Source: Candidatus Pacearchaeota archaeon (GTDB lineage Archaea; Nanobdellota; Nanobdellia; Pacearchaeales; GW2011-AR1). From it: 64,000 nucleotides of DNA. Within the stretch, counting starts at the first letter, position 1. Each line of letters opens with the position of its first letter. Of the stretch, positions 361-47,360 are shown one piece after another. A program made the translations under genes and the position numbers. The notes below the pieces were generated by a model. The model searched no databases, had not been told where the DNA came from, and saw nothing but the letters and a program-made list of their open reading frames with translations. The stretch is from contig JAFCFX010000001.1 of NCBI GenBank assembly GCA_017608405.1, positions 7,667-71,666 of the forward strand, written 5' to 3'.

Positions 361-678
361 TTATTCTTGTAAGACTTTGCTTGCTCGTTTATTTCTTCTT
401 GAACTCCTGTATTTTGATTTTTTACATTCATTGCAAGTATACATTATGTTTGTCTTTTTTGTTGTTTTAGTTTTTCTTTTAAATTTAGATACAGCAGGTT
501 TAGATCCCCATTTCCCTTTGTTTCCTATTCCTGTTCCAAGTCCACGCTTTTTAGCTCTTGAAATACTCCCTCTTGTCAAGGTTCCTCTTTTTCCTCCTGT
601 TGATACTACTTTGATTTTTTGTTGTGTTTTTTTCTTACAATATGGACAATAACGCTTTGTTGTTTTAGGTATTTTCAT
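361..678 (-). CDS. rpl44e: Ribosomal protein L44e (eL42)
   Basis: 105 aa, very basic. N-terminal KRYCPYCKKKT and C-terminal YTCNECKKS form the C4 zinc-ribbon signature of eL42; the size fits. Confidence 0.8.
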   Translation of the reverse strand: MKIPKTTKRYCPYCKKKTQQKIKVVSTGGKRGTLTRGSISRAKKRGLGTGIGNKGKWGSKPAVSKFKRKTKTTKKTNIMYTCNECKKSKYRSSRRNKRASKVLQE

Positions 679-720: not shown

Positions 721-825
721 ATGGTCCTGCCAAGAATCGGGCTCTGAATAAATTCAGGCCTAGCACTCAAATAAATTTAAGCACTAAACTAAAGTTCGAT
801 TTTTATATGGTCCTGCCAAGAATCG
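721..825 (-). repeat. 19-nt direct repeat of the tRNA-Val 3' end (721-739 and 807-825) bracketing a 67-nt two-hairpin module
   Basis: ATGGTCCTGCCAAGAATCG occurs twice (plus-strand coordinates). The second copy is the T-loop 3' part, T-stem 3' strand, acceptor 3' strand and discriminator of tRNA-Val. Between the copies are hairpins CTTAAAT/ATTTGAG and GGCCTGAA..TTCAGAGCC, written in tRNA orientation. The G.U pair exists only on the minus strand, which argues for a minus-strand transcript. Confidence 0.6.
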
Positions 826-919
826 AACTTGGGTTTCATCGAATCTGAAGTTATACTCTAAAGTTTATGATACTCATAACCTAGTCAGCGATGTGTCTTA
901 GCCATTGGACTACAGGACC
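808..919 (-). tRNA. tRNA-Val (anticodon GAC) with an intron of about 40 nt near the canonical 37/38 site
   Basis: Minus strand reads GGTCCTG-TA-GTCC-AATGGCTAA-GAC-A-CATCG-CTGACTA. After a 40-nt insert come CGATG, a T arm (CCAAG-TTCGATT-CTTGG), acceptor 3' strand CAGGACC and discriminator A. Acceptor strands are perfectly complementary and U33 is present. Anticodon identity is moderately sure. Confidence 0.7.
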
Positions 920-980: not shown

Positions 981-1175
981 ATGAGAAGAGGAAATACACT
1001 TTGGTTCATAATCTACCTTGTTTTTGGAGTATATTTTATTAATTCTGCTTTGAATTTTTTCCCTATGTCAGAATCTTTTTTGATAGTAGATAAGTGGATA
1101 AGTTTGATTGGGGGGGTTTTAATTCTTGTTGGGGCATTTAATCTTTTAAGGTTAGGCAGAAGATATAGATATTAG
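981..1175 (+). CDS. Hypothetical small membrane protein (two predicted TM helices)
   Basis: 64-aa ORF with two hydrophobic stretches and no recognisable family. Support comes only from intergenic position and hydrophobicity. Confidence 0.25.
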   Translation: MRRGNTLWFIIYLVFGVYFINSALNFFPMSESFLIVDKWISLIGGVLILVGAFNLLRLGRRYRY

Positions 1176-1294: not shown

Positions 1295-1486
1295 ATGGAA
1301 TCTCATAATAATAAAAAGAGAATATTGGATTTTTTAAAACAACAGAGAATAATTACTTCTTCAGAACTTGCTGAAAATTTAAAGGTTTCTTGGAATACTG
1401 CAGATAAATATCTTTTAGAATTGACTTTAGATGGAAAGATTGAAAGAATTAAAAAAACCGGGGTAAACTTATGGTTATTAAAATAA
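1295..1486 (+). CDS. Small winged-helix (wHTH) DNA-binding protein, putative regulator of the downstream surface-protein operon
   Basis: Internal ATG at 1295 is preceded by AGAGGGG 5 nt upstream (SD-like); the annotated ORF starts at 1235. KRILDFLKQQRIITSSELAENLKVSWNTADKYLLELTLDGKIERIK is a typical HTH plus wing. It overlaps the next gene by 16 nt. Confidence 0.55.
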   Translation: MESHNNKKRILDFLKQQRIITSSELAENLKVSWNTADKYLLELTLDGKIERIKKTGVNLWLLK

Positions 1487-3303
1487 ATAAACAAGGACAG
1501 GTGACAGTCTTTATTATAATTGCAATTGTAATTGTTGCTGCAATTATTTTATTTTTCACACTTAGTAAACCAATAACTACTGATAAAATTCCTGCAAGCA
1601 TTGATCCTGTTTATACTACACTTTTGTCTTGTTTAGAAGAAGATACTTTGGTTGGAGTAAGTATCTTGCAAACTCAAGCAGGATATATTGATGTGCCTGA
1701 GTTTGAACCAGGTTCTTCATATATGCCTTTTTCATCTCAACTAGATTTTCTAGGAAATCCTGTGCCTTATTGGTATTATGTTTCAGGAAATAATATTCAG
1801 AAAGAACAAATTCCCTCTAAAGCAAATATGGAGCAGGAACTTGCTGATTTTGTCGAATCAGAAATAAATACCTGTATTTTTGATAAATATTATGAAGATG
1901 GTTTTGAAATAAGATTTGGAGAACCAGAAGCAAATGTAAAGATTAAGGATACTGAAATTGAGGTTGGATTGGATATGGATTTTAATGTCAATTTTGCAGA
2001 AGATAGTGCACGCGTTTCACAACACAATGTTGTAGTTGATTCAAGATTAGGTAAGCTTTATGATTCTGCTGTTGAAGTTTATGAAAAAGAACAGGAAGAA
2101 TTATTTTTAGAAGAATATGCTGTTGATACTTTGACACTCTATGCTCCTGTTGATGGTGTTGAGTTGAGTTGTTCTCCTGTGACCTGGGCAACAGAAGAAG
2201 TTTTTGATGAATTAGAAATAGCTATTGAGGCCAATACCCTTGCTTTAAAATCAAAAGGAAGTAATAAAGATTATTTTGTAGTTGATTTGGGGGTAGATGA
2301 AGATGTGAGGTTTATTAATTCAAGAAATTGGCCAAGAGGTTTTGAAGTTTCTCCTAGTGAAGGAAATATTTTGATTTCTTCTCCTGTGGGTAATCAAGCA
2401 GGATTGGGAATAATGGGCTTTTGTTATGTGCCATATCATTTTGTTTATAATGTGAGGTACCCTGTTCTAATTCAGATACAAGAGGGAGACGAGATTTTTC
2501 AATTTCCTGTTGCAATTGTTTTACAGGGTAATCAGCCAAGACAAGCTTTAGATGCGAGTGCTGTTGCTCTCGGAATCCCTGATTTATGTGAATATAAGAA
2601 CAATATTATGGAAATAGAAGTTTATGATACTAATGTCCGTCCTATTGATGCCCAAATTAGTTTTGAGTGTTCTGGAACAAAGTGTGATATTGGTGAAACA
2701 ACTTCTGGTTCTTTATCTGGAGAATTTCCACAGTGTGTTAATGGACAAGTTTTAGCAAGAGCAGAAGGATATGAAGATGGTAGAAAAGTGGTTTCTGAGA
2801 TAAATGGGGGAAGTGTAAGCTTGTTTTTAGAAAGGCTATATGATGTGGAGATTGAGTTAGAATTAGATGGAAGCGCTTATGGAAAAGACGCAATAATTAG
2901 TTTTATTTCTGAAGGCAAAGCAAGAACAATTGTTTATCCAGAGCAAACACAGGTTGAGTTGAGTGAAGGAGATTATGAAGTGCAGGTTCATATTTATGAT
3001 AGTTCTTCACTGAGAATTGATAAATCTGTTTCAAAGCAATGTGTTGAAGTTCCTAGGTCAGGACTTGGAGGCTTATTTGGATTAACAAAAGAAGAATGTT
3101 TTGAAGTAGAAATACCTGCCCAAGTTATTTCAAATGCATTAGCTGGAGGAGGAAAACAAGGTTATTACTTTGTGCAGTCTGAATTAAATTCAAGAGCAAT
3201 TGTAATTAATGCAGAAAGTTTGCCAGCTCCAAATTCTCTTGAACAATTGCAAGATAATTATTTATTATTTGAAGATAAATCTTTGGAGATTTCTTTTAAA
3301 TGA
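1471..3303 (+). CDS. Membrane-anchored extracellular protein (N-terminal TM, 610 aa), unknown function
   Basis: N-terminal hydrophobic helix (VTVFIIIAIVIVAAIILFF) is followed by about 570 aa of hydrophilic, Cys-containing sequence. Its stop overlaps the start of the giant downstream gene (ATGA). Confidence 0.6.
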   Translation: MVIKINKQGQVTVFIIIAIVIVAAIILFFTLSKPITTDKIPASIDPVYTTLLSCLEEDTLVGVSILQTQAGYIDVPEFEPGSSYMPFSSQLDFLGNPVPYWYYVSGNNIQKEQIPSKANMEQELADFVESEINTCIFDKYYEDGFEIRFGEPEANVKIKDTEIEVGLDMDFNVNFAEDSARVSQHNVVVDSRLGKLYDSAVEVYEKEQEELFLEEYAVDTLTLYAPVDGVELSCSPVTWATEEVFDELEIAIEANTLALKSKGSNKDYFVVDLGVDEDVRFINSRNWPRGFEVSPSEGNILISSPVGNQAGLGIMGFCYVPYHFVYNVRYPVLIQIQEGDEIFQFPVAIVLQGNQPRQALDASAVALGIPDLCEYKNNIMEIEVYDTNVRPIDAQISFECSGTKCDIGETTSGSLSGEFPQCVNGQVLARAEGYEDGRKVVSEINGGSVSLFLERLYDVEIELELDGSAYGKDAIISFISEGKARTIVYPEQTQVELSEGDYEVQVHIYDSSSLRIDKSVSKQCVEVPRSGLGGLFGLTKEECFEVEIPAQVISNALAGGGKQGYYFVQSELNSRAIVINAESLPAPNSLEQLQDNYLLFEDKSLEISFK

Positions 3304-6300
3304 AAATGAAAAAACAACTTATATTTGCAATGGTTTTGATAGTGGGGATTTTATTATTATCTTTTGTTTCTGCTTCAGCTTCACGTTCTATTTCTCAATA
3401 TATTTCTCCTGGCTTGTCTTCTGGTTTTTTTGGCCAAGCTTATGCTCCTATTGACAGGTCAATGTGTGAAGCAGGACAAGATTTTATTGTTCAAATTGCT
3501 CCGGGGGGGTGTACTCCTCCTGTGATTAGACAAGATTTATTAGAAGAACGAGATGTACCTATTACTTGTCAATTAGCTGCAACAAAAATTAATCCTTTGA
3601 TAGATGTTGAAGCAATTGATTATATTAGTTTTGGAACAAAATTTCCAAGAGGAGTTAAAGCAATGAATTTTTACCCTGCACAAGCTGCTTTAGGGGAAAT
3701 GAGAACTAGGTTAAATTCTCCTATTTTAAATAATATTGGTTATGTTGTGATAGTTTTAGAAAGACAACAAAATGCTTCTAAATTGCCTAATTGCGGACTT
3801 GATCCTATTACAAAAACAGAAGTATGCTGGGTTGAAGGCAATTTAACAGCAAATATTAGATATGATATTAAAAATGCTTTTGGTATTGGTCCAGTAAATT
3901 TCTATCTTCCTGAAATGAGTGATTCAGATTGGGAAGATCAGCATACGCAGTATAGTTTTTGGAATGGTAAAGGTTATTTAAGGGCAGAAGCAATTCAAGA
4001 GGATAGGGCTACAATTTCTCTTTATGATGGAGTTAGGGAAATTGATAGTGTTAGATTAGAAGAAGGACACACTTCTGAAAAAATCTATTTACCTGGATTT
4101 GATTGTTTGACTGCTTTAGAATTAGAATTAAAAGGTTTAGAAAATCCTGGAACAAGAGCTAGATTAGATATTAATGGCGAAGTTGTTGAGGTGGGAGATG
4201 GAGAGAGATTTTTAGAAAATAGGTGTAAGGTCACAGATCTTGAAGTCTTAGGACTTGTACAGACTGTTGAAGGCTATTGTGAAAGAGATAATGGCAAAAA
4301 AGAAGATTTTGTTTTTCCGATTAGTCCTAAAATTAAATTAAAAATTGGAAGTGGAGAGCCAAAAGAATACAGTGTTGGAGATTGGTTATATTCTTCAGGA
4401 GAGACTGCGGTTTATCTTGGTTATGCTGGGACTAGGGGCGACACAAGCAGAGAAGAAGATTTATATGTTTATCTTTTTTCAATACCAGAACATGAGAAAG
4501 AGGGTTTGGGTCATGATAAGTTAAAAGTTATTTCTGATGTTGTTTATAATATTGAATATAAAGATGTTACTGGTAATGCACTTACAAATTTTGTAGCTAA
4601 TATGGGTAAATTTTATATGGGAGTTACTCAACAATTTATGGCATATGTTACTAAAGGAGATAATTATGCTAGGATTGGTTATGGGCAAGATGAAAAGATT
4701 GGTGGGCAAGATGTGTTGGTTGTTGGTTTGGCTGGAGCAGAAGATAGAAGCTTTAATGAGCAGAATCTAGATTTTAGAGAATACTATACTAAAGCAATGC
4801 AAGATTATGATACTGTAATAAATAGTTTTGGAACAGAAGAATATTCTGAAGAAGAAATCGGTTTTGCAGAAAAAGCTTTGTTTGAGAAAATAGCATTTGC
4901 AAGTTCTACTCAGCAAAAAAGAGTAATGTTAGATTTTTGTGATGAATTTAATGAGCTATATCCTGATTCTAGATATGCAGAAAAAATAAAATCATATTGT
5001 GATAATGCTTTAAAGCTCGCAAGTCCTGAAGAACCAAGTGAAGATTTTTTAATTAATGGGAGAATGAAAACAATTTCTTTTGAAGGGATTTATGAACCTG
5101 ATGAAGAAGAATATAGTGCAGATATTAGAATTCAAGGTCCTAATGGGCAATCCCGGGTTTTTACATTTAGGCATAATGAACAAATTTATCTTGATTTATT
5201 TAGAGATAATGGAACACAGCATACAGGAGAGTTTATTCAGTTAATTGATTTAGATCTTGATTCAGCAGAGGTGCAGACGTCTTTTGTTTCTAATAAAAAT
5301 ACTGCTGGAAAGATTAGTGATTTTTTCTTTGCATCTAGTAAAAAAACATTAGAAAAAGGAGTTGTTCAGAGTATTGGGAGTGATTATGTTTTGACTCTGG
5401 AAAAAGTTAGGTTGAAAAAACAAGCATTTGTAAGGGTAAGGCCTGCAATTGATGATGCAGGCACAGAAGCTGATTTTAGATTTAAAATTGGAATAGAGAC
5501 TCGACTAATAAAATTATCTCCTGAAAAGACTAAAGAAAAAATAGAAAAAATAGAAAAAAGACTTGAAAAATGGGAGAAAATTTCTAGTACTCTTAACAAA
5601 GTTGTGAAGACTCTTAATACTGCTTGTTATGCAACTCAATTAGCTTTGACTTTAAAGAATCTTGTTACAGAAGGGATATTAAAGAGTGGAAAATCAATTG
5701 CAAGGCAAGAAGTTATGAGGTTAGAAGAGGGGTGGAATGATGAGTGTGGAAATTTAACAGGACCAGATAAACAATATAAAACAAACAGTGCCTGTTTACT
5801 CGGCGAGGCAAAAAAGATTAATGGTGATGTTGATGAACGTTTTGATGCTATGAAGAGTACTGAAGAGTATTTTAAGACAATGCAAGATGACCCTGAAATA
5901 AAAATAAAAGATTCTCTTTTTGGAGATACTGTTTATGATTCTGAAAAGCTTAAGAAAAAATTATTAGATAATAAATATGAAGAACAATTAACAGATGAAA
6001 TTAATTTTGATTCTGTTGAGATTAAGGGGGAGCAAATTCTTGTTTCAGATATTTTGAAAGGATTAAATTCTAGTTCAACTTCAATAGAGCAAATGAGGGA
6101 CATGAGGATGAATGCTGATCTTTTAGATTCAGATAGTGATGTTTTAAGAAGAATGAGTAAGGCACAATTAGAAAAAGATCTTGTAGAGATTTATCAAAAT
6201 ACTAATAAAGAAATAGAATATAAGAGTGTGCTTAATGATTTGCGTGGGAAAGAGGGGCTTAGTAATATTGATATTGCAGTGGCGAGAAGTGGAGATGTTG

Positions 6301-9300
6301 AAGAAATAATTTATGAGGGAGGAATTAAAGGTACAGGAGGTTTTGGAGATATGCCTGATGGTTCTCAAATAATGGGTCTTCAATTTGGAGGAACATGGTA
6401 TATTGTAGAGTTACAGACTATTAAAGTAAATGAATATTCTGTACTTAATGTTTACAGTTCTCAGACTGGGAAGAAAGAGGGAGATTCAGAGGATTTAGCT
6501 AAAGAGATGAATAAAAAATTTGCTTTTAGATCTTATGATTCATCTGCATATGAAAATCCTTATCTATCTTCTTCAGGAAAAACTTATCCTGTTGTAAGAT
6601 ATTTTGAAACAGAACCATATAAAGGATATCCTGCAATTGTTCCTTTTGATTTGAAAAAAGGATGGTATGCTCGTCTTACACAGACTATGCCTGTTTTTGG
6701 TAATCTTGCTCCTGTTGATGCATCTGGGAGGCCTACTAGTTTTTCTGTGTGTAATGTTTGGGAAGATGGGAAAGAAAATAATGGGAGGCCTGATGATAAA
6801 TGTACTTTGATTAATACAAATACAGGACAACCCTATGATCAAGTTTCTGGGCTTTCAAAAACCGAAGCAGAGAAATTGGTTCATGATGCTAGTGAAGCGA
6901 TTAAACAAGCTAGGAGCCAATACCCTGCAAAAGGTAGAATTGAAATTAATATTGGAGGAAGAGATAAATTTTATGTAAAAGTGGGTGAGCCTGCTGTTGA
7001 TGTTCCTGATTTGCAGTGTGAGGAGGTTATGTCTCCAAAAGAGTGTAATGTATTGTTTAATGTTTGTGATCCTGTTATTTGTCCTTCCAGTAGATGTAAT
7101 CTTGGAGGCAACTACCATGTTCAAGATGTTATTCAATCTGGAATAGTGGGTAGTGTTGCTTTATGTTTTCCTAATTGGGTTGTGCTTGGAGGAGATGTTT
7201 ATGTGCCTGTTTGTTTATCTGGAATTAATGCTGGAGTCAAAGCATGGATTACTGTTGAAAAATCACATAGAGATTGTTTGCAAGATAGTTTAGCAACAGG
7301 AGAAATGACTGGAATTTGTGATCAGGTTTATAGTATACACACATGTGAGTTTTTTTGGAAGCATGGAATTCCCTTAGCAAATTTGCTTATTCCTAAAGCT
7401 TTAGAATTAGCTACAGGACAAAAAGCTAAGGGAGGAGGAGAATATATGGGGATTTCACATGCTTGGGAAAATGCAGGAAAGTCATTTGATTATTTTACAC
7501 AATATTATGCTAAAAACTCATTTAAAGCATTTAAAGAAAGATCAACAGAAGAAGTGGGAGGAGAGTTTTGTAAGGTTGCTGTTTCAGGTGTTTATCCTTT
7601 TATGGGGGGAGATGCGTTTGATGCTTTGACAGATCCTAATACACCTTATATTTCTTATGCACGATTTGAAGAGATACCCCACACAACAGCCACAGTTCCT
7701 GCAATGTCCCAGTATAAAGTGTTTTATCATATTTATGCAGGTGAAAATTCTAGAGCTTATTATAAGGTTTATTTAAAGGGGGGAGCTGAAACCTCATTTT
7801 ATGAAGATTTAGGCATGGTTGTTGTTGCTGAAGGATATATTGATAAGGGAGATTATGCTACAGGTAGTCGTGATATTCTAGGGATTTCTGGGTATAAACA
7901 ATTATGTACCATGGTAAATGGAGATGAAAAATGTGGGTTTAAACAGGTTTCAACAGATTTTGCAGTTAATTATGTAACAGAATTATATATGAAAGAACAA
8001 ACAAGTAAAACAGATATTAAATCAGCAAAAGAATGTTATGCAGGAACTCCGAGTGCATATAGTTTAGCAAATCCTCTTAATTTGGCAGGTTTTGGAGGCC
8101 AAACAGTGGAGAATGTAAATGAAATAACAAATCCTGCAATTTATGATAGAGGGGTTATTAGGATTTGTTCTTCTGGAAATCCAGGAAAAGGAGATGACAT
8201 TTTTTGGAATGATCCAAATCAATCTAGATGGAAACCAGTTGGGGTTTGTGATGAGACTATGGATTGTTGGTTAGATACAGAAAGTGTTGAAAGAGTAATA
8301 AAAGCTACAGATTTAAAAGAAGATGTTTTGAAAAATCAAAATGAAAATTATCAACAGATTTTAGAAAATAGTGGTAATTATTTGAGTGAAACTGAATTTC
8401 AAGAAAAAATTAGTGAGATTAAAAAACAAGAAGATCCAAGCAATCAATTAAGCATGATAACACAAATTTTTGACAATGTTTTTAAGAATAATGATAAAGC
8501 TTATTTATATTATTTAAGGGGTGTTGCTTATGCTGCTTTGGCTCTTCAAAAATATGTAGTGAGTGTTCCTGAAAAAATTTTAGGAAAAGATAATGCTACA
8601 ACAGATTATTTAGAAGAAGTAAAAGTAATAGGAGAAAGAAATCCAAAATATCCTCTCTTTGAATTTCAAGATGGTAGAACAAAAGAGAATTTTTATTTTC
8701 AATATTCTGGAAGTGAATGGTGGTGGTCTCGTGTTAGAGACCATGAAGAATCTTGGTTTCCTGTGACTCTTGTCGAAGACCCTGGATTTACAGCTTTTTT
8801 AGATGAGAGGGGGATAAAATTACCTCCTAATCATGATCGAGAACAAATAGCAAAATTACAAGGTAAAGATTATGTTGGGGGGTTAAAAGAGTTGATTGCA
8901 CGGACAATTAGAAATGATGAACCAAAAGGGGTAATAGATTATGTTAATGTAGTTGGTATTGGGGGAGGAGCAACACTAGATACAGAAACTGTGAAGATGT
9001 CTTCTACTAAAATGTTTTATCTTGAGCAAGAAGAGATGCAAACCCCAACTGGTAAATATAAAGAGGTTTTAATTGATATTGTTGATTCAAGGTGGGCCTG
9101 GTCATTTGATATGGAAAATTGGGACTGGTCTTCTCCAACAGATACAAATAAAGTAAGTTCTGATATTATCTTATTATTTGAAATTTTAGAAAGAGATAAT
9201 CCTGTTTTTCTTGATGGTGCTAATCTTATATTTAGTATTGATGCTGAAACTCCTGTTATGGGGGAAGTGGAGGTTATTGGTAATGGGCAAGATATAACAG

Positions 9301-9734
9301 GGGATAAAATTTGGGAAAAAGCTAGTAAAATGGTTACTGATAAACATAATTCTCAAAGAGGAGAATATTTTGATAATGTTTGTGCAAGATTTGTTACAGA
9401 AGTTTTAACTGCTGCAAGGATAGGGGGTTTTGAAGCTCCTTCAGATGAAGATTTTTGCCCTTTAGATAGTGTTAATACTCTAGTAAATGAGTTAGAGAAA
9501 AGAGATGATTTTATTGAAATTCAAGATCCAACATCTTTTGAAAAAGGAGATGTTGTGGCATTTAAATGGTCTGTAGGGGGACAGCATATGACTATCTTTA
9601 ATCAATATGATTCAAGTAATATAAAACACTTATATGTTTTTGGAGAAGGTGGTGAAGATGATCCTGCAATTTTACAAGATTATGTATTAGGACCAGAGGC
9701 GAGTATTCTTGGGGCTTATAGATATGTTGGATAA
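3300..9734 (+). CDS. Giant secreted protein (2144 aa) with Cys-rich regions, coiled-coil segments and a C-terminal NlpC/P60-CHAP-like papain-fold hydrolase domain
   Basis: Uninterrupted 6.4-kb ORF. Signal peptide MKMKKQLIFAMVLIVGILLLSFVSASAS. The middle has coiled-coil (KEKIEKIEKRLEKWEK) and Cys-rich blocks (CDPVICPSSRCNLGG...). The last 150 aa or so contain a catalytic-type Cys (FDNVCARFVTEV) followed about 67 aa later by GDVVAFKWSVGGQHMTIF, the G-D-hydrophobic ... H-hydrophobic His motif of NlpC/P60-CHAP amidases and peptidases. Confidence 0.75.
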   Translation: MKMKKQLIFAMVLIVGILLLSFVSASASRSISQYISPGLSSGFFGQAYAPIDRSMCEAGQDFIVQIAPGGCTPPVIRQDLLEERDVPITCQLAATKINPLIDVEAIDYISFGTKFPRGVKAMNFYPAQAALGEMRTRLNSPILNNIGYVVIVLERQQNASKLPNCGLDPITKTEVCWVEGNLTANIRYDIKNAFGIGPVNFYLPEMSDSDWEDQHTQYSFWNGKGYLRAEAIQEDRATISLYDGVREIDSVRLEEGHTSEKIYLPGFDCLTALELELKGLENPGTRARLDINGEVVEVGDGERFLENRCKVTDLEVLGLVQTVEGYCERDNGKKEDFVFPISPKIKLKIGSGEPKEYSVGDWLYSSGETAVYLGYAGTRGDTSREEDLYVYLFSIPEHEKEGLGHDKLKVISDVVYNIEYKDVTGNALTNFVANMGKFYMGVTQQFMAYVTKGDNYARIGYGQDEKIGGQDVLVVGLAGAEDRSFNEQNLDFREYYTKAMQDYDTVINSFGTEEYSEEEIGFAEKALFEKIAFASSTQQKRVMLDFCDEFNELYPDSRYAEKIKSYCDNALKLASPEEPSEDFLINGRMKTISFEGIYEPDEEEYSADIRIQGPNGQSRVFTFRHNEQIYLDLFRDNGTQHTGEFIQLIDLDLDSAEVQTSFVSNKNTAGKISDFFFASSKKTLEKGVVQSIGSDYVLTLEKVRLKKQAFVRVRPAIDDAGTEADFRFKIGIETRLIKLSPEKTKEKIEKIEKRLEKWEKISSTLNKVVKTLNTACYATQLALTLKNLVTEGILKSGKSIARQEVMRLEEGWNDECGNLTGPDKQYKTNSACLLGEAKKINGDVDERFDAMKSTEEYFKTMQDDPEIKIKDSLFGDTVYDSEKLKKKLLDNKYEEQLTDEINFDSVEIKGEQILVSDILKGLNSSSTSIEQMRDMRMNADLLDSDSDVLRRMSKAQLEKDLVEIYQNTNKEIEYKSVLNDLRGKEGLSNIDIAVARSGDVEEIIYEGGIKGTGGFGDMPDGSQIMGLQFGGTWYIVELQTIKVNEYSVLNVYSSQTGKKEGDSEDLAKEMNKKFAFRSYDSSAYENPYLSSSGKTYPVVRYFETEPYKGYPAIVPFDLKKGWYARLTQTMPVFGNLAPVDASGRPTSFSVCNVWEDGKENNGRPDDKCTLINTNTGQPYDQVSGLSKTEAEKLVHDASEAIKQARSQYPAKGRIEINIGGRDKFYVKVGEPAVDVPDLQCEEVMSPKECNVLFNVCDPVICPSSRCNLGGNYHVQDVIQSGIVGSVALCFPNWVVLGGDVYVPVCLSGINAGVKAWITVEKSHRDCLQDSLATGEMTGICDQVYSIHTCEFFWKHGIPLANLLIPKALELATGQKAKGGGEYMGISHAWENAGKSFDYFTQYYAKNSFKAFKERSTEEVGGEFCKVAVSGVYPFMGGDAFDALTDPNTPYISYARFEEIPHTTATVPAMSQYKVFYHIYAGENSRAYYKVYLKGGAETSFYEDLGMVVVAEGYIDKGDYATGSRDILGISGYKQLCTMVNGDEKCGFKQVSTDFAVNYVTELYMKEQTSKTDIKSAKECYAGTPSAYSLANPLNLAGFGGQTVENVNEITNPAIYDRGVIRICSSGNPGKGDDIFWNDPNQSRWKPVGVCDETMDCWLDTESVERVIKATDLKEDVLKNQNENYQQILENSGNYLSETEFQEKISEIKKQEDPSNQLSMITQIFDNVFKNNDKAYLYYLRGVAYAALALQKYVVSVPEKILGKDNATTDYLEEVKVIGERNPKYPLFEFQDGRTKENFYFQYSGSEWWWSRVRDHEESWFPVTLVEDPGFTAFLDERGIKLPPNHDREQIAKLQGKDYVGGLKELIARTIRNDEPKGVIDYVNVVGIGGGATLDTETVKMSSTKMFYLEQEEMQTPTGKYKEVLIDIVDSRWAWSFDMENWDWSSPTDTNKVSSDIILLFEILERDNPVFLDGANLIFSIDAETPVMGEVEVIGNGQDITGDKIWEKASKMVTDKHNSQRGEYFDNVCARFVTEVLTAARIGGFEAPSDEDFCPLDSVNTLVNELEKRDDFIEIQDPTSFEKGDVVAFKWSVGGQHMTIFNQYDSSNIKHLYVFGEGGEDDPAILQDYVLGPEASILGAYRYVG

Positions 9735-9777: not shown

Positions 9778-9861
9778 GCGGAGGTGCCGGAGTGGTCAAA
9801 CGGGCTGGATTTAGGCTCCAGTGGCTTAGTGCCTGCGAGGGTTCGAATCCTTTCCTCCGCA
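9778..9861 (+). tRNA. tRNA-Leu (anticodon UAG), class II with long variable arm, no intron
   Basis: GCGGAGG acceptor pairs with CCTCCGC; anticodon arm CTGGA-TTTAGGC-TCCAG; long variable arm TGGCTTAGTGCCTGCGAG; T loop GGGTTCGAATCC; discriminator A. Confidence 0.8.
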
Positions 9862-9875
9862 TAATGTTTTTAGAA

Positions 9876-10802
9876 TTAGTCTTTTTTCTTGTGTTCTTTT
9901 TCCTTTTGCTTAATTTTTTCTTCTAAATTAAGTCTTTCAATTAGCTCTTTGTATCTGTTTCTGATTGTGACTTCTGTGATTCCTGCAATGTCTGCAACTT
10001 CTCTTTGAGTCTTTTTTTCATCATTCATTAAAGCAGCAACATATAGGGCTGCTGCAGCAATTCCAGCAGGTCCTCTTCCTGAAGTTAATTCAACTTTTTC
10101 TGCTTGCTTTAATACTTTTAAAGCATCATTTTGAGTTCTTGGAGAGAGTTTTAATACACTTGAAAATCTTGAAATATAATCTTTTGGAGAACTTTGTTTA
10201 ACTTTAATCTGTAATTTTCTAATTATGAATCTATAGGTTCTTCCAATTTCTTTTCTTTCAACATCAGAAGCTGTTGCCATTTCATCTAAGGTTCTTGGGA
10301 TATTATAAGATCTACATGCAGCGTATAAACAAGCAGCAATTACAGATTCCATGCTTCTTCCTCTGACAAGTCCTCTTTGAAGAACAAAATTGTAAATTCT
10401 TGAAGCTTCATCTCTTACGACATTTGGTAGATTAAGATATGAAGAAATAACTCTTAATTCGGCCATTGCGAGTCTAAGGTTTCTTTCAATACTCGTAGAT
10501 ACCCTTTCTTGCCACTTTTTTAATCTTAAGAATTTCCTTGTTTGTCCTGGTTCTAGTTTGTAAATATCTGAGATTTCCCCAACATTTGTGGCAAGTCCCT
10601 TATCAAACTTTTGCATGCTTATTGGAGCTCCACCCCTTCCTTTTTTCTCATCTTTATCAAACTTACCTTGTAAATCTACCCCTGTATCTACCATTTTTTC
10701 TTCAATTACAAGGCCACAGTCATTGCAAATAACTTCTCCTAGGTGAGAATCATAGGTTAGATTAATACTACCGCATTCTGGGCATTTTTTTACAAAACTC
10801 AT
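9876..10802 (-). CDS. tfb: Transcription initiation factor IIB (TFB)
   Basis: N-terminal zinc ribbon (CPECGS...CNDCG) followed by two cyclin-fold repeats; 308 aa. Confidence 0.9.
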   Translation of the reverse strand: MSFVKKCPECGSINLTYDSHLGEVICNDCGLVIEEKMVDTGVDLQGKFDKDEKKGRGGAPISMQKFDKGLATNVGEISDIYKLEPGQTRKFLRLKKWQERVSTSIERNLRLAMAELRVISSYLNLPNVVRDEASRIYNFVLQRGLVRGRSMESVIAACLYAACRSYNIPRTLDEMATASDVERKEIGRTYRFIIRKLQIKVKQSSPKDYISRFSSVLKLSPRTQNDALKVLKQAEKVELTSGRGPAGIAAAALYVAALMNDEKKTQREVADIAGITEVTIRNRYKELIERLNLEEKIKQKEKEHKKKD

Positions 10803-13261: not shown

Positions 13262-13399
13262 GCGGAGGTGGCACAACGGTACTGCAGTCGGTTGCAGCTG
13301 GGGGGCACCAAGGTTCCCCTTACGATAACCCCTCCTTTTTCGAAAGGAGAAGGAAAGGCAAAACCCGACTTTTCGTGGGTTCGACTCCCACCCTCCGCT
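13262..13399 (+). tRNA. tRNA-Cys (anticodon GCA) with a structured intron of about 68 nt; discriminator U73
   Basis: GCGGAGG-TG-GCAC-AACGGTA-CTGC-A-GTCGG-TTGCAG, then an intron of about 68 nt holding two hairpins, then CCGAC-TTTTC-GTGGG-TTCGACT-CCCAC-CCTCCGC-T. U73 is the expected Cys identity element. Spurious ORFs on both strands cover this RNA in the track. Confidence 0.7.
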
Positions 13400-14285: not shown

Positions 14286-17174
14286 ATGAGAAAGAGGGAG
14301 AGGATTGTTACTTATTTATTTATTGTAGTTTTACTTGGTTTTGCAATTGGTTTTTTATATGTAGCAGAGGTAAGACTTACTGGATTTGCTGTTTTTGGGG
14401 ATTCTGGAGTGGAAGTTGAAAAAGGAGCTTATTGGGATAAGTATGAAGATGCACAAGGGATTCAAAGACTAAAAATTCATAACACTCCTATTAATTATTA
14501 TGATGGAAATGATTATGTTAGTATTACTTATGGTTCTTGTGGGAGCAATTGTTTCAGAGATTGGAATGGATTAATCTATAGAGTAAGTACAGATCCTCAA
14601 AAAGCGTACATAAATTTATATGATTCTGAAGATAATTATATTTCTAGTTTTGGTTTTGGCATTACTGGACAGATTGGAGCAAATACTTATAAATATACTA
14701 CTTTGAATTTTACATGGACTTGGACCCAAGAAACTGTTGGAGAGGAATATATTTTTACAGGATCGAATAATCAAGCTAATTTTAATTGGACTCAAGAATT
14801 TCATTTTTATCCAAATCAATCAATGAAGATTAAAAATACAATTACAAATAATTTGGGAGTGAGTGTTGATAATACTGAATTTTGGTTTATTCAGACTATT
14901 GGATCAAATCAAGGTGTTTGGTTTAATGGAACTAAATATGATCAAGATGTATATAGGTCAGGAAATTTTGATGCGTTAATGTCAAATATTCAGTTTGAAG
15001 ATAATTATGTTTTTGATTATAGTGATTTGCTTGTTAATGGGTTTAATATTACTTCATTTTATTTAGGGGATGGAGAGGTTGTGGGGGTTGGAGGAACAAG
15101 ATTACTAGCAATTGGAATAACAAGGGGAAGCAGTGTATTTTCAGATGGAGTTGCTGTGGTTGTTGATCCTAGTGTAAAAGTAAGTGAGGGAGGGGATGAT
15201 GCATATGTGGCTTCTGGGAGTCCAAATCAAAATTTTGGAACAAATACAGGATTAGAAGTAAGAAGACAAAGTCCAACAAGAAGATCATATCTTATGTTTA
15301 ATATTTCTGAGATCCCTGTTAATCAAGTGATAGATGATGCAGAATTATGTTTGTATCTTTATGATGACGTGATTTCTGGGGCCACTACAATTTCAATAAA
15401 TCATGTTCACAATATTTCTTGGTGCGAGGGAAATGGAGGGAGTGATGGAAGCCCTGTTTGTGAAATAACTTGGAACAATCAACCTTGCGGAACAAATTTT
15501 GATAATTCTTCTTTATGTAATTTGACTTCAGAATCAAATATTACTAATGATGGAAATCAAGATAATACTTGGCAATGTTGGAATATTACTGCTTTGGTTT
15601 CTAAATCTTACTTGGATGGTAGCAATAAAACTGCAATGGTTTTGACTACAAATGATTCAGGGAGTGCAGATAAATTTAGATCAAAAGAATATAGTGATTC
15701 TGCTTTGTGGCCTTATATTAATGTTACTTATCATACTGCAAATATTGCCCCCTCTATAAGTCTTGTAGAGCCCCAGAACCTTGTGTATGGTTATAATGAA
15801 TCTTTATCTTTGAATTTTTCTGCTTTTGATATTGATGATAATTTAGATACTTGTTGGTATACAATTAATGCAGGGAGTGGGATTATTCTTGCAAATTGCA
15901 CTAATACTACTTTTGATGTTTCTGAAGAGGGAGTTTATAATTTGACAATTTATGTAAATGATACTTTTGGGGAGCAGGCAAGTGATAGTGTTAATTTTAA
16001 TATAGATTTAACAGGAGTAAGTATTTCTGTTTCAGAGCCTCAAGGAGACAAGACTTCTAGAACAGAAATTCCTTTGCAATATTCTGTGGTTGGGAATAAT
16101 TTAACTTGTTGGTATGAGGTAAGAACTTCAATTGGGGGAAGTGTCATTGATAATTTAACCCTTGTAAATTGTTCTGAGTCAAGTTTTGATGTTTCTTCAG
16201 ATGGAGATTATGTTTTGAGTTTATATGCAAATAATAGTTTTGGAACTTTTAATTTAACAAGTTCTAGTTTTAGTGTTTCAACTTCTTCAACTCCACCAGA
16301 TAATGGTGGGGGTAGCGGGGGGGGGAGTAGTAGTGGATCTTATACTTTAGCAACAGGACTCTTTATAGGCCCAGTACAGGATTTAATTATAGAGGCTGGA
16401 AAAACAAAGAAAATAAATGTAAATGTTAAAAATGAAAAGTTGGTTTTTTTACAAGACTGTAGGGTCGTAGGTGATGGAGATTATCCTGATTGGATTTCTC
16501 AAAGTGAAATTAAGGGCTTAGCTGCAGGAGAGTCTTATGATTTTATTTCTGATTTAACTATTCCTGAAGGTTTTGATTCAGGAATATATGGTTTGGGACT
16601 AAAGGTTGTTTGTGAAGGTGAAGAAAAAAATATTAGTTTTAATGTAGAGATTCTTGAAAAGAAATTTGATTTTCATTTAATTGATGTTGAGAGGTTTAGT
16701 GAAGATAAAATGAAAATAGTTTATTCTCTAGAAGAACTTGCAGGATTAGATCAGGAAATAGGAGTGGAATTTTTATTTTTTGATTTAGATGATGAGAAGC
16801 AAGCAGAGGTTAAAGAAAATAAGACAATCACCCCCAATTCAAATCAAGAATTCGAAGCCTTTGTTTCTATTGATCCTGATTTAAAAGGCGATTTAACTAT
16901 GTTAATTAATTTAAATTCAGAAGTTTATTCTTATTTTGTTCAAGAAAATATTGTTTTGGGCCCTTCAATTAGTGGTCTTGCTGTTTTAGCAGACAATGTT
17001 AATCTTAATAATATTTTTAGTATTGTCTTTGTTCTTCTTTTCTTGGTATTTGCTTTTTTTGTGATTAGAAAAATTAGGAGAGGCAAGGTAGGAGTTAAGA
17101 AAAAAAAATCAAGAAGAAAAAAATATGATTATGTAGTGCCTAAATATGTACTAATGGTCTTGTGTGGTGCCTAA
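14286..17174 (+). CDS. Large cell-surface protein (962 aa), N-glycosylation sequon-rich, tandem Ig-like repeats, C-terminal TM anchor with basic tail; S-layer-like
   Basis: N-terminal TM; more than 30 NxS/T sequons (e.g. NSSLCNLTSESNITNDG, NKTAMVLTTNDSG); two repeats of about 90 aa (CWYTINAG...FDVSEEGVYNLTIYVNDTFG / CWYEVRTS...FDVSSDGDYVLSLYANNSFG); GGGSGGGSSSGS linker; C-terminal hydrophobic segment plus IRKIRRGKVGVKKKKSRRKK. Confidence 0.65.
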   Translation: MRKRERIVTYLFIVVLLGFAIGFLYVAEVRLTGFAVFGDSGVEVEKGAYWDKYEDAQGIQRLKIHNTPINYYDGNDYVSITYGSCGSNCFRDWNGLIYRVSTDPQKAYINLYDSEDNYISSFGFGITGQIGANTYKYTTLNFTWTWTQETVGEEYIFTGSNNQANFNWTQEFHFYPNQSMKIKNTITNNLGVSVDNTEFWFIQTIGSNQGVWFNGTKYDQDVYRSGNFDALMSNIQFEDNYVFDYSDLLVNGFNITSFYLGDGEVVGVGGTRLLAIGITRGSSVFSDGVAVVVDPSVKVSEGGDDAYVASGSPNQNFGTNTGLEVRRQSPTRRSYLMFNISEIPVNQVIDDAELCLYLYDDVISGATTISINHVHNISWCEGNGGSDGSPVCEITWNNQPCGTNFDNSSLCNLTSESNITNDGNQDNTWQCWNITALVSKSYLDGSNKTAMVLTTNDSGSADKFRSKEYSDSALWPYINVTYHTANIAPSISLVEPQNLVYGYNESLSLNFSAFDIDDNLDTCWYTINAGSGIILANCTNTTFDVSEEGVYNLTIYVNDTFGEQASDSVNFNIDLTGVSISVSEPQGDKTSRTEIPLQYSVVGNNLTCWYEVRTSIGGSVIDNLTLVNCSESSFDVSSDGDYVLSLYANNSFGTFNLTSSSFSVSTSSTPPDNGGGSGGGSSSGSYTLATGLFIGPVQDLIIEAGKTKKINVNVKNEKLVFLQDCRVVGDGDYPDWISQSEIKGLAAGESYDFISDLTIPEGFDSGIYGLGLKVVCEGEEKNISFNVEILEKKFDFHLIDVERFSEDKMKIVYSLEELAGLDQEIGVEFLFFDLDDEKQAEVKENKTITPNSNQEFEAFVSIDPDLKGDLTMLINLNSEVYSYFVQENIVLGPSISGLAVLADNVNLNNIFSIVFVLLFLVFAFFVIRKIRRGKVGVKKKKSRRKKYDYVVPKYVLMVLCGA

Positions 17175-24808: not shown

Positions 24809-24873
24809 GATTAATTGTGTATTCACTTGAAAAAAGTAGTAAGGCTTATATATTTTGGAGGTTTTGGATTAAC

Positions 24874-26445
24874 ATGGTTAAGAAGAATTTATTTTTATTT
24901 TTGGCAGTGTTTTTTTTAATAGCAAATTTGCAATTTGCCTTTGCAATTGAAGGTAAGAGGGCGATTTTGAAAGAAGATAGATTGACTATTGATGAAATAA
25001 ATCAATTAATTAAGGAAAAAGGGGCTAGTTGGATTGCTAGGGAAAACCCTGTTTATAATCTTCCTGATGAAGAAAGAAAGAAAATGTATGGTTTAGAAAT
25101 TACTGCAGAAGATTTTATGAAAATCTTTGGAGATGAAGAAAGATTAATTGAAAGTAGTGGAGATCTTCCTGAATATTTTGATTGGACAGACTATCATGGA
25201 CAAAATTATATGACTCTTGTAAGAAATCAAGCTGCTTGCGGGGGGTGTTGGGCTTTTAGCACAATTGCAGCTTTAGAAGGAAATGCAAATGTTTTCTATA
25301 ATGATCCTAGTTTAGATTTAGATATGTCTGAACAAGATTTAATTTCTTGTTATATGGGGGACGGTTGTGATGGAGCTAATGAGGAAGAGATTGAATATGG
25401 ATTTAGTAATTATCTTAGAAATACAGGGGTTGCAACAGAATCTTGTTTTAGATTTACTGCTACTAACGATTTTTGCTCAAACAAGTGTGTTGATTGGCAA
25501 GATGATGCTTGGAAAATTTTAGGATATCGAGATGTAACCTTGAGTATGGATGCTATAAAACAAGCAATTATGGATTATGGTCCTGTTGCAGTTGGAATGA
25601 TTGTTTATGAGGATTTTCCTGCATATTCTGAAGGAATATATTCACATACAACAGAAGAAATTGAAGGATATCATTCTGTTGCTCTTGTTGGTTTTGGTGA
25701 GGAAAATGGAGTAAAATATTGGATTGCTAAAAATAGTTGGGCATATTGGTGGGGAGAGAGTGGATATTTTAGAATAAAAATGGGAGATTCAGAAATTGAT
25801 TCTTGGTTTGCTTTTGCAGTAACTCAACCAGATCCTCCTGAACCCCAAACTGTTCTTTGTACAGATGCAGATGCAGATGGTTATTGTTATTGGGGGATAG
25901 GAGATAAGCCTGGGACAGGTTGTCCTGCTTGTAATGATACTGTATTTGATTGTGATGATTCTGATCCTATGATGTTTGAAGGTTGTGGATTTTATCCTGC
26001 AGGACCAGGACTCTTAAATATAAGTTCAGATCCAACAAGTGCTAGGATTTATATTAAGAATTTATTGACTGGAGAATGGAATTATGTGAGCCAAACACCT
26101 TTTTTGTATTTATTAGATTCTGGTGAAAGAGAAATAAACCTTACTAAGTGGGGATATTATGATTATCTCACTACTATTTTAATTGAAGAAGATCTTACAA
26201 CTGATTTATTTGTTGTTTTAGAAAGAGAACCTTGTGGAGATGTTAATAATGATACTAAAATTAATATTTTAGATATTGTTTATTTGATTAATTATATTTA
26301 TAAGGAAGGGCCCGATCCAATTTGTTCTCCTATTGAAATGTGCGCAGATATAAATAATTATGGGGGGATAGATATCTTGGATGTTGTTTATTTGATAAAT
26401 TATGTTTATAAGGGGGGAGGTCCTCCTTGCGGTATCCCTGAATAA
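24874..26445 (+). CDS. Secreted papain-family (C1) cysteine peptidase with C-terminal dockerin-like module
   Basis: Start is supported by GGAGGT upstream of ATG 24874 and a signal peptide (MVKKNLFLFLAVFFLIANLQFAFA). Catalytic QAACGGCWAFS (QxxCGSCWAF), HSVALVGF and NSW are present. The C-terminus has two dockerin-type Ca-binding segments: GDVNNDTKINILDIVYLINYIYK and ADINNYGGIDILDVVYLINYVYK. Confidence 0.8.
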   Translation: MVKKNLFLFLAVFFLIANLQFAFAIEGKRAILKEDRLTIDEINQLIKEKGASWIARENPVYNLPDEERKKMYGLEITAEDFMKIFGDEERLIESSGDLPEYFDWTDYHGQNYMTLVRNQAACGGCWAFSTIAALEGNANVFYNDPSLDLDMSEQDLISCYMGDGCDGANEEEIEYGFSNYLRNTGVATESCFRFTATNDFCSNKCVDWQDDAWKILGYRDVTLSMDAIKQAIMDYGPVAVGMIVYEDFPAYSEGIYSHTTEEIEGYHSVALVGFGEENGVKYWIAKNSWAYWWGESGYFRIKMGDSEIDSWFAFAVTQPDPPEPQTVLCTDADADGYCYWGIGDKPGTGCPACNDTVFDCDDSDPMMFEGCGFYPAGPGLLNISSDPTSARIYIKNLLTGEWNYVSQTPFLYLLDSGEREINLTKWGYYDYLTTILIEEDLTTDLFVVLEREPCGDVNNDTKINILDIVYLINYIYKEGPDPICSPIEMCADINNYGGIDILDVVYLINYVYKGGGPPCGIPE

Positions 26446-38935: not shown

Positions 38936-39268
38936 ATGACAGAAATGATTAGGCTTGAGGAGGTTATGGGGGTTAAGAAAGCTTTGGAAGATGGGCAATT
39001 CGTTATTTCTGATAGATATGTTTATGATAAATATATTATGGAAAAGCTTCCTCAATTAAAACAAAATAATTATCCAAAATCTCTGTATGATAATAAAGCT
39101 CCTGGTGAAAATAAATTAGATCATATATTGCCTTGTGCTTATTTATGGGGAAATACTTTTTCTGGAGTTTGTTGGTTAGAGTTTCTACATGATGATAATT
39201 GGTTTGTTCAGAGTTCTCATTTGAAGATAAAAAAATTCTTAAAAATGGAATCTTGTGAAGAATTTTAA
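38936..39268 (+). CDS. Hypothetical protein
   Basis: 110-aa ORF, no motif recognised. Confidence 0.3.
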   Translation: MTEMIRLEEVMGVKKALEDGQFVISDRYVYDKYIMEKLPQLKQNNYPKSLYDNKAPGENKLDHILPCAYLWGNTFSGVCWLEFLHDDNWFVQSSHLKIKKFLKMESCEEF

Positions 39269-40182: not shown

Positions 40183-40254
40183 GGGCGCATAGTTTAATGG
40201 ATAGAATTTCCGGTTTCGGCCCGGTTGGTGGAGGTTCGATCCCTCCTGCGCCCG
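40183..40254 (+). tRNA. tRNA-Arg (anticodon UCG), no intron
   Basis: GGGCGCA-TA-GTTT-AATGGATA-GAAT ... TCCGG-TTTCGGC-CCGGT ... GGAGG-TTCGATC-CCTCC-TGCGCCC-G. Anticodon assignment is moderately confident; position 27.43 is mismatched. Confidence 0.6.
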
Positions 40255-40262
40255 TTTTTAAA

Positions 40263-41960: not shown

Positions 41961-42031
41961 ATTTATACAGGGAAAAGGTTTTTTATAAACTTTACCAAAA
42001 AAGTAATAAACTCTTTTGTTTTGTTAGCTTA

Positions 42032-43471: not shown

Positions 43472-43483
43472 GTTTATTTGATA

Positions 43484-44839: not shown

Positions 44840-44925
44840 AATTGTTTGACGGGCTAGTTATTTAATAAACTTTTTATTCTGTGCTTTTAGCAAAGATTTA
44901 TAAATTATTTCTCTAGATTATCTTT

Positions 44926-47359: not shown

Positions 47360-47360
47360 A

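Follow-up and report, generated by a model that had tools for sequence, protein, structure and literature searches.

The locus described here probably encodes the Pacearchaeales form of a surface cassette of two genes that is found lineage-wide and inherited vertically, a reading to which, taken as a whole, we assign a probability of about 0.6. The cassette pairs a 610-aa protein (the partner) with a 2144-aa protein (the giant) whose large conserved scaffold ends in exchangeable enzyme modules, and it most likely serves to breach or bind murein in a bacterial host or prey cell. The window, a stretch of 64,000 nucleotides, is part of a 152-kb metagenome contig, has a G+C content of ~31%, and carries an archaeal gene context (TFB, S8e, LSm, MCM, and TFE). 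Giant proteins of this kind, if they cut walls, bear on whether any archaeon lives on bacteria, for which the published clue is an SLT domain found on some of them. For none of the Pacearchaeales has a bacterial host been established in the literature and, to our knowledge, no member of the group has been cultivated.

In the ORF list, the winged-helix (wHTH), partner, and giant genes form a plus-strand unit (see the table). The first two overlap by 16 nt (1471-1486) and the last two by 4 nt (ATGA, 3300-3303), coordinates that bear out the three coupled, overlapping genes of the preliminary description. That description also treated the three as one operon of regulator, membrane protein, and giant. 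The arrangement is real in this genome, but the conserved pair consists of the partner and giant only, as the wHTH gene was found in just 2 of 85 related loci (the present genome and one relative). A short RHH-like gene often takes its place. The wHTH reading frame could start at 1235 or 1295, the latter being used in the public gene call, and GAGGGG precedes the ATG at 1295; its product scores above the Pfam cut-offs for HTH_11 (27.8 bits; cut-off 25), HTH_24 (25.9; 21.9), and HTH_DeoR (24.1; 21). This gene is a local, replaceable regulator slot outside the conserved machine. A 64-aa protein encoded further upstream is a possible extra component of the pair: it was recovered by tblastn in 37 of 85 loci, and by an iterated search in 49 of the 58 loci with 1.3 kb or more of upstream sequence, and it matched nothing in Pfam or PHROG.

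Table. Features of the cassette and its flanks, in window coordinates.
Feature	Position	Strand	Remarks
64-aa protein, two hydrophobic segments	981..1175	+	conserved upstream neighbor of the partner/giant pair
63-aa winged-helix DNA-binding protein (wHTH)	1295..1486	+	HTH_11 and HTH_24 above gathering
610-aa partner	1471..3303	+	N-terminal prepilin-like signal and hydrophobic helix, then Cys-containing body
Partner N-terminus, MVIKINKQG/QVTVFIIIAIVIVAAIILFFT	1471..1560	+	class III (prepilin-like) signal motif and sole hydrophobic helix
Giant, predicted exported protein, 2144 aa	3300..9734	+	424 homologs
Giant Sec-type signal peptide, aa 1-27	3300..3380	+	sequence and ...VSA.Y.RS pattern kept in homologs
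Conserved scaffold, aa 28-1750	3381..8549	+	30 conserved cysteines
Tail module A, aa 1785-1985	8652..9254	+	duplicated ~100-aa unit, FEF.DG...Y.Y...W.WS motifs
Tail module B, aa 2000-2144, papain-like cysteine peptidase domain of the NlpC/P60 superfamily	9297..9731	+	
tRNA-Leu(TAG)	9778..9861	+	3' boundary of unit; ARAGORN and Rfam
Transcription factor B (TFB)	9876..10802	-	convergent conserved downstream neighbor; TFIIB and Zn_Ribbon_TF domains

Relatives of the giant occur in 495 GTDB species genomes; each of the best 80 bears a Pace-, Woese- or Nanoarchaeota label or just the word "archaeon". The partner gene lies directly upstream of the giant at every locus with enough sequence: it is the immediate 5' neighbor in 76 of 85 loci, and the other nine have no sequence there because the contig or locus ends. 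The wider neighborhood is also fixed, with eL42 and, further along, TFB, S8e, LSm, and RNase Z; this housekeeping synteny was seen in all five contigs with called genes and in the great majority of the 80 GTDB loci. In 66 of the 85 loci, the giant is followed by TFB itself (~92% identity), which marks the locus as housekeeping context. The preliminary description had proposed following conservation and synteny across DPANN genomes; wherever the loci have enough sequence, the partner and giant stay together, and their neighborhood is fixed, so the pair is not mobile.

The family combines a conserved scaffold of ~1750 aa and 30 cysteines with a swappable C-terminal tail, and the best 120 of the 424 giant homologs range from 1876 to 3120 aa in length. 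By inspection, the N-terminus of the window giant (MKMKKQLIFAMVLIVGILLLSFVSASA/S) is a Sec-type signal conserved in homologs, with cleavage probably after VSA or ASA. The signal is strongly hydrophobic, and only one other segment, a borderline one at aa 1277-1295, passes the hydropathy cut-off. Thirty of the 34 cysteines are kept in at least 90% of 60 homologs; the signal peptide and the cysteine-rich character noted at the outset are both upheld. These conserved cysteines, together with 10 invariant ones in the partner family, are consistent with extracellular disulfides. Conservation is greatest at aa 51-150, 700-800, 1100-1170, 1250-1550, and 1600-1650, and prediction places long helices at roughly aa 740-990. 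Our searches gave no recognizable fold for the scaffold, which makes up ~80% of the protein.

Beyond the scaffold, homologs differ. In place of the peptidase found here, their tails may carry SLT, glucosaminidase, DUF1615, DUF2272 or trypsin modules. Among the 120 top homologs, papain-like modules occur in 44-50 tails, Pfam SLT (PF01464) in 26, and at least one murein-hydrolase-type module in 96, a count from iterated local searches that may include profile drift; the same searches recognized no hydrolase module in the other 24. Module A is present in 53 of the 120 tails at varying positions and copy numbers and has no match in Pfam or PDB, and a binding role for it is a guess. Scaffolds sharing 86-89% identity can bear tails of different classes. 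A ~1750-aa conserved N-terminal region with rapidly swapped C-terminal enzymes is also the layout expected of a polymorphic-toxin-like effector, in which a conserved delivery region carries variable toxins for competition between microbes, and the structural neighbors of the tail include the T6SS amidase effectors Tae2, Tae3, Tae4, Tse1, and Ssp1. That reading, raised in the preliminary description along with a lysin-like effector, is weakened by the vertically inherited, syntenic core position of the locus. There is one copy per locus, no secretion-system genes lie nearby, and no immunity-like gene follows, the giant being succeeded by tRNA-Leu and convergent TFB here and by TFB at most loci. 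The missing immunity gene is a weak test, since an archaeon with no murein of its own could do without immunity, but we regard a toxin of this kind as highly improbable.

Module B, the tail tip, has a predicted papain-like alpha+beta fold, with an N-terminal helix followed by an antiparallel beta-sheet, and fold matches of the predicted C-terminal structure are almost exclusively NlpC/P60 and CHAP peptidoglycan hydrolases. The motif FDNVCARFV holds Cys2028 (nt 9381-9383) and GGQHMTIF holds His2096 (nt 9585-9587); in the model's own numbering, the cysteine sits at the start of helix 58-69 and the histidine at the start of strand 126-135. Both residues are nearly invariant, and degenerate copies lose the two at once: of 58 domain copies, 44 have both and 11 have neither. 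Glu2116 (9645-9647) is a candidate third residue: an acid is conserved there in the closest subfamily, and the column varies in the wider set. Per-sequence Pfam matches are weak and fall on NLPC_P60, CHAP, Amidase_6, Amidase_5, and DUF1287, which we take to form one clan. Across 11 module B relatives, the best E-values were 0.021 for NLPC_P60 (four members) and 0.0012 for CHAP (two members); no module B sequence reached the gathering score of NLPC_P60 (PF00877) or CHAP (PF05257), and the window sequence gave no such match. The assignment therefore rests on the predicted fold and the conserved dyad, and module B is best regarded as a superfamily-level relative that belongs to neither Pfam family. 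The C-terminus had originally been called NlpC/P60-CHAP-like, a claim vulnerable to the failure of profile searches and to loss of the Cys and His in homologs; it survived on the fold matches and on the conservation of both residues.

Module B shares with known NlpC/P60 and CHAP peptidoglycan peptidases and amidases (LytE, CwlO, SagA, MepS, RipA/B, the CHAP endolysins LysGH15 and LysIME-EF1, and the T6SS effectors Tae and Tse1) the predicted papain-like alpha+beta fold, a cysteine at a helix start, a histidine on the following beta-sheet, and a GD[ILV]V motif before the histidine strand. Unlike them, it scores below all curated thresholds and terminates a 2000-aa archaeal scaffold, rather than being fused to SH3, LysM or CBD domains. 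The NlpC/P60 fold is also found in acyltransferases and in peptidases that do not act on murein. The tip might act on another target, such as the pseudomurein or surface proteins of an archaeal host, the cell's own envelope, or the giant itself during maturation or autoprocessing; we consider this improbable. Archaea of this group are not known to make murein, and sister giants carry SLT or glucosaminidase modules at the same position, so a neighbor's bacterial peptidoglycan is the most likely target.

Other structural neighbors of module B are the diffocin hub-hydrolase (8v3w), the phage phi812 baseplate (9euf), and the phage Andhra tail-tip lysin (8ej5), in which, as predicted for the giant, a large structure outside the cell carries a murein peptidase at its far tip and has to get through a bacterial wall. 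Such neighbors, together with the large size, long helices, and terminal lysin domain, recall phage tape-measure proteins and tail-tip lysins, as though the giant were the remnant of a virus or mobile element. The likeness ends at the catalytic domain: the giant has no homology to these systems beyond it, and neither giant nor partner has a PHROG match. No other viral genes were seen among the window ORFs scanned, and the chromosomal site, flanked by ribosomal-protein and TFB genes, hardly varies among the 85 loci analyzed. Synteny effectively refutes a viral origin. Surface giants reported from other ultra-small symbionts, such as the SPEARE proteins of Nanohaloarchaeum antarcticus and the giant proteins proposed to degrade cell walls in Omnitrophota, are likewise very large, exported, multi-domain proteins with degradative domains in contact-dependent organisms of reduced genome. 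We detected no sequence relationship between these and the window giant, and the domain sets and lineages differ.

The partner is the better conserved member of the pair (~60% identity, against ~43% for the giant scaffold). It has more than 2300 homologs of 605-640 aa, and 5322 cluster representatives were retrieved at E<=1e-3; a Pfam search found no domain. It has a single hydrophobic helix, at the N-terminus; the "membrane protein" first proposed carries a prepilin-like (class III) signal motif and is not polytopic, and the remainder is consistent with an extracellular, cysteine-containing body. The family consensus at the N-terminus is K[RK][GAS]QVTIFIIIAI, with Q10, T12, and F14 invariant. 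The FlaFind rule of Szabo et al. 2007 is said to call for a [KRDE][GA][ALIFQMVED][ILMVTAS]x3 motif followed by a hydrophobic stretch. A pattern of this type occurs in 89 of 120 partner homologs, and all 120 carry [GAS]-Q-x-T-x-F-I-I-I-A. The window partner reads KQG/QVTVF, with Q rather than K or R at -2, and so fails the strict rule. Neither a prepilin peptidase (A24) nor pilus genes were found among the window ORFs scanned.

From these features we infer a mechanism. The giant would be exported through the Sec pathway as a disulfide-rich scaffold of ~1750 aa bearing interchangeable C-terminal enzyme modules, and the translationally coupled partner, which alone of the two has a stable hydrophobic anchor, most likely tethers it to the cell surface or displays it there. 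In the present genome, the tail consists of module A, possibly for binding, and behind it a cysteine peptidase of the NlpC/P60 superfamily in which the Cys2028-His2096 pair is intact. Most likely, this tip cleaves peptide stems in the bacterial peptidoglycan of a neighboring cell, and local opening of the sacculus could then serve attachment, contact or nutrient uptake. Bacterial wall binding or degradation is also the published proposal for SLT-bearing giants (PMC8204110). Agreement with it, and the SLT, glucosaminidase, and other murein-lytic domains that homologous giants carry at the same tail position, lend support to the host-envelope role first suggested for this locus.

The enzymatic evidence would be identical if the giant were an antibacterial or scavenging exoenzyme, free or only loosely attached, that lyses bacteria or digests the murein of dead cells for amino acids and sugars, with no specific host attachment and a scaffold serving only for stability or matrix binding. 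Published papers have suggested that amino acids come from the peptidoglycan of dead bacteria, or that the lifestyle is predatory and "vampiristic", and the window encodes further secreted hydrolases, namely a trypsin-like protease and a papain protease that carries PEGA and dockerin domains. However, a conserved 1750-aa scaffold with a strictly co-inherited, anchor-bearing partner is costly for so reduced a genome, and small lysins of ~150 aa would be enough. We therefore judge a free exoenzyme unlikely, while giving it some weight. A bolder extension of the surface-cassette reading, which we advance as distinctly doubtful, is that the scaffold and prepilin-like partner build a so-far undescribed archaeal surface organelle for archaeon-bacterium contact. 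The swappable murein-lytic tip would open the sacculus, the best-conserved part of the scaffold (a helical block at aa ~1250-1440 that is hydrophobic and rich in Cys) would then engage or insert into the bacterial membrane, and tail type would track host wall chemistry. Were this true, host range could be read from the genome.

The giant family was described through its SLT domain by Castelle et al. 2021 (fam00969, PMC8204110) and appears also in PMC9723730 and PMC10936187. The window giant is 38-47% identical to SLT-bearing DPANN giants over the ~1750-aa scaffold (P0002, P0004, and P0021 among them), reaching 47% over 82% of the length with the PF01464-positive P0002 and P0004. It shares with fam00969 the lineage restriction, given for that family as Pace- and Woesearchaeota, the size class of ~2000-3000 aa, and the predicted extracellular location. 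Unlike those giants, it lacks SLT (GH23), the naming feature of the family, and ends in module A and an NlpC/P60-like peptidase; SLT is absent from the protein by Pfam and from the entire window by tblastn. On sequence grounds, it is an SLT-less, peptidase-tipped variant of an already described family. The published accounts consulted recognize the family through SLT/GH23 only and say nothing of the swappable tail, the frequency of papain-like tips, the obligate nature of the 610-aa partner or the fixed synteny.

Our comparisons indicate that the near-universal scaffold-plus-partner cassette takes several interchangeable murein-lytic tips, of which SLT is only one, so that surveys based on GH23 alone would under-count the trait. 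For chimney Pacearchaeota, a survey of that kind reported the trait as absent, and the present window would likewise be negative in SLT-based screens. The diversity of tail types provides a genomic handle on host range, and an expressible domain of ~150 aa with a predicted Cys/His pair opens the proposal that these archaea cut bacterial walls to direct testing. Both the 1750-aa scaffold and the 610-aa partner, being large, highly conserved structural orphans, merit structural work.

Searches with the 2144-aa giant protein detected 424 homologs, the best 120 of which are all 1876-3120 aa long; the MAGs that encode them carry the labels Pacearchaeota, Nanoarchaeota or "archaeon". Relatives were traced to 495 GTDB species-representative genomes, one of them the single-cell genome SCGC AAA011-D5. 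Among the best 120 homologs, 116-120 cover each 50-residue block of aa 1 to ~1750 (105 in the signal-peptide region), and this conserved part has 30 cysteines that are present in 90% or more of the sequences. Beyond aa ~1750, coverage collapses to 9-48 sequences. We refer to the conserved aa 28-1750 as the scaffold and to everything C-terminal of it as the tail. Scanned directly against Pfam and NCBIfam, the giant protein gave no match, sequence and profile searches against PDB sequences yielded nothing significant, and the window contains no paralogous copies.

Pfam domains in the tails of different homologs include SLT, glucosaminidase, DUF1615, DUF2272, Trypsin_2, TPM, LRR and ankyrin. Single-linkage clustering chained all tail segments into one cluster and was dropped; tail counts therefore derive from seeded, iterated local searches. 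These identified papain-like Cys/His modules in 44-50 of the 120 tails, module A (a duplicated ~100-aa unit) in 53, and at least one murein-hydrolase-type module in ~96. SLT was found in at least 26 of 120 tails by Pfam, in 21 by a strict motif count and in 48-52 by iterated searches; the last range may include profile drift, and we take the first two figures as conservative. Module A showed no significant similarity to PDB sequences in sequence or profile searches. Tail modules vary in order and copy number among homologs. For 87 of the 120 homologs, the nearest relative by scaffold has the same tail class (chance expectation, 35%), yet switches between scaffolds that are 86%-89% identical indicate that tails are exchanged on short evolutionary time scales. 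That the giant protein is a polymorphic-toxin-like effector is, in our estimation, quite unlikely. The window also encodes a 286-aa trypsin-like protease of the Trypsin_2 type, a domain type that recurs in the tail of one giant homolog (P0089).

The window protein ends in module B, for which the preliminary description had proposed an NlpC/P60-CHAP relationship. Searches of PDB sequences with this module, by sequence and by profile, gave nothing significant (CwlO appeared only at E=1.5), and a profile search of a 5.8-billion-protein index returned one match. We aligned 11 relatives sharing the last ~150 residues of the giant protein and scanned each against Pfam. Only sub-threshold matches emerged, to NLPC_P60 (four members), CHAP (two), Amidase_6 (two), Amidase_5 and DUF1287, families that we take to constitute one clan. 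The AlphaFold2 (AF2) model built from this alignment is confident (pLDDT 84.5, pTM 0.78) and places the Cys at the beginning of a helix and the His at the beginning of a later β-sheet. An iterated search of the 120 homolog tails recovered 58 copies of the domain in 44 proteins; Cys and His are both kept in 44 copies and both gone in 11, and mixed states are almost absent. Such joint retention or loss is what one would expect if the two residues form a catalytic pair and an occasional copy is a pseudo-enzyme. Together with the sub-threshold clan matches and the modeled fold, this pattern upholds the proposed relationship: module B is a divergent member of the NlpC/P60 superfamily that falls outside Pfam NLPC_P60 and CHAP at the sequence level. 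Some tails (e.g., those of P0098 and P0097) hold two papain-like modules, one lacking both residues; such copies are probably pseudo-enzymes with a binding role.

Two observations point to murein as the target of module B: its structural neighbors, and the presence of SLT or glucosaminidase in its place in sister proteins. The earlier interpretation of the giant protein as carrying a cell-wall-hydrolase tip is supported. Action of the peptidase on something other than murein, whether pseudomurein, protein or the giant protein itself in self-processing, seems improbable. As the best-supported reading (probability roughly 0.6), we propose that the giant protein, which has one signal peptide and, apart from it, just a borderline hydrophobic segment (aa 1277-1295), would be exported by Sec and stabilized by many disulfides. 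It would be displayed at the cell surface through its co-translated partner, the sole supplier of a membrane or fiber anchor, and its distal peptidase would cleave the peptide stems of murein in a neighboring bacterial cell. A distinctly less probable alternative is a soluble exoenzyme with a scavenging or lytic role.

The partner is a 610-aa protein encoded directly upstream. Its close homologs number more than 2300 and vary little in length (605-640 aa), and it is better conserved (~60% identity) than the scaffold (~43%). Profile searching of 1.84 billion representatives gave 5322 matches, including a more distant tier of 640-680 aa that is likewise archaeal; no Pfam, NCBIfam, PDB-sequence or PHROG match was obtained. 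Ten of its cysteines are invariant, and it has only one hydrophobic helix. The N-terminal family consensus is K-[RK]-[GAS]-Q-V-T-I-F-I-I-I-A-I, with the Gln, Thr and Phe invariant, and 89 of 120 homologs satisfy the archaeal class III (prepilin-like) signal rule. The window partner, with KQG|QVTVF, departs from the strict rule at position -2.

We compared 85 related loci. In 76 of them the giant gene is immediately preceded by the partner gene; in the other nine the contig or locus ends, leaving no sequence upstream of the giant gene. A TFB gene follows the giant gene in 66 loci and an S8e gene in 56, and a ribosomal protein gene lies upstream in 54. Five gene-called long contigs share the order S3Ae, eL42-like, small ORFs, partner, giant, TFB, S8e, LSm and RNase Z. 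This constancy of gene order identifies the pair as a vertically inherited core locus and not a mobile one. It also argues against the giant protein being a viral remnant of prophage or tape-measure origin, as does the lack of any match when PHROGs were searched with the giant protein and the partner; we consider that origin effectively excluded.

AF2 modeling of scaffold aa 690-1750 with 42 homologs gave moderate confidence (pLDDT 67.6, pTM 0.43), with long helices at aa ~740-990 and β-rich domains at aa ~990-1230 and ~1450-1550. Long helices are also modeled at aa ~1250-1440, with the lowest confidence; this is the giant protein's most conserved block, Cys-rich and relatively hydrophobic. 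Weak confidence in so conserved a region may mean that it requires a partner protein, an oligomer or a membrane.

The open reading frames agree exactly with the earlier account of three genes. All are on the plus strand; the gene for a winged-helix (wHTH) protein overlaps the partner gene by 16 nt, and the partner gene overlaps the giant gene by 4 nt (ATGA). GAGGGG lies just before the wHTH start codon. The same start appears in the public gene annotation of the source contig, a JGI metagenome contig of 152 kb on which window base 1 corresponds to base 1251.

Features of the window and of the compared loci
Feature	Position	Strand	Remark
Ribosomal protein gene	361-678	-	
tRNA gene, 112 nt	808-919	-	Rfam tRNA model, 51.8 bits
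64-aa protein	981-1175	+	two hydrophobic segments
wHTH gene, 63 aa	1295-1486	+	ORF reading; alternative 83-aa version from 1235 possible
Partner gene, 610 aa	1471-3303	+	ORF reading
Giant gene, 2144 aa	3300-9734	+	ORF reading
Module A	aa 1785-1985		in tail
Module B	aa 2000-2144		Cys2028/His2096
Conserved scaffold block	~7047-7619		aa ~1250-1440
tRNA gene, 138 nt	13262-13399	+	Rfam tRNA model, 44.4 bits
962-aa protein	14286-17174	+	CBM96/disaggregatase-repeat domain
542-aa protein	24817-26445	+	Peptidase_C1 (papain), PEGA, dockerin type I
DisA-type and DHH/DHHA1 genes	34921-37044	+	adjoining
286-aa protease	39265-40125	-	Trypsin_2
Amidotransferase genes	40197-45990; 49950-51266		GatD/GatE-like plus GatB/GatA (amidase)-like
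Two class II tRNA synthetase paralogs	46043-48692		Asp/Asn type
43-46-aa protein, example	L003 4021-4152		
43-46-aa protein, example	L004 4051-4185		
43-46-aa protein, example	L013 4921-5058		

The three-gene operon is thus correct for this genome. Pfam confirms the 63-aa product as a bona fide winged-helix protein, but it occupies this position in only two of the 85 loci, so the regulator is a replaceable accessory. Upstream sequence was long enough in 58 loci; in 23 of these, the slot is taken by a 43-46-aa protein (MKKYLLLIEDEKLWEKFK..DINTEIIELIKKK) whose gene overlaps the partner start by 4-11 nt. By its sequence pattern this protein looks ribbon-helix-helix-like, with no Pfam support; two loci carry a CopG-type protein with a weak RHH_1 match (E=0.0018). 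The 43-46-aa protein at the wHTH position thus looks like a non-orthologous substitute, one small putative regulator standing in for another. In 49 of the 58 loci a 64-aa small membrane protein, which matched no family, is encoded farther upstream; it is a better candidate than the wHTH protein for a third conserved component of the cassette.

The giant family itself, and the general idea of its role, are already published. Castelle et al. (2021; PMC8204110) described the family through its SLT domain and proposed bacterial-wall attachment or degradation; the family is also noted in PMC9723730 and PMC10936187. Later surveys repeat the proposal and score the trait through GH23/SLT. The window protein has the same scaffold but no SLT. 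Relative to these accounts, the variant with a peptidase tip, the modularity of the tail, the fixed synteny and the obligate partner with its prepilin-like signal appear to be new. The finding, including the predicted function, offers a concrete way into the question of whether these archaea have bacterial hosts.

Around the operon lie archaeal housekeeping genes (G+C ~31% across the window): TFB, S8e, LSm, RNase Z, several aminoacyl-tRNA synthetases, GatDE/GatAB-type amidotransferase subunits, FtsZ, MCM, TFE, DisA and deoxyhypusine synthase. A sigma-70 promoter/terminator scan, a model not applicable to archaea, gave results no different from shuffled sequence. Two tRNA genes missed by ARAGORN probably contain introns. 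The 542-aa protein is probably another exported hydrolase in this small genome, and the 962-aa protein is likely surface-associated or carbohydrate-binding. The DisA-type diadenylate cyclase gene and the neighboring DHH/DHHA1 phosphoesterase gene possibly form a bacterial-type pair for c-di-AMP synthesis and degradation in an archaeon. Finally, the two tRNA synthetase paralogs cluster with the amidotransferase genes.
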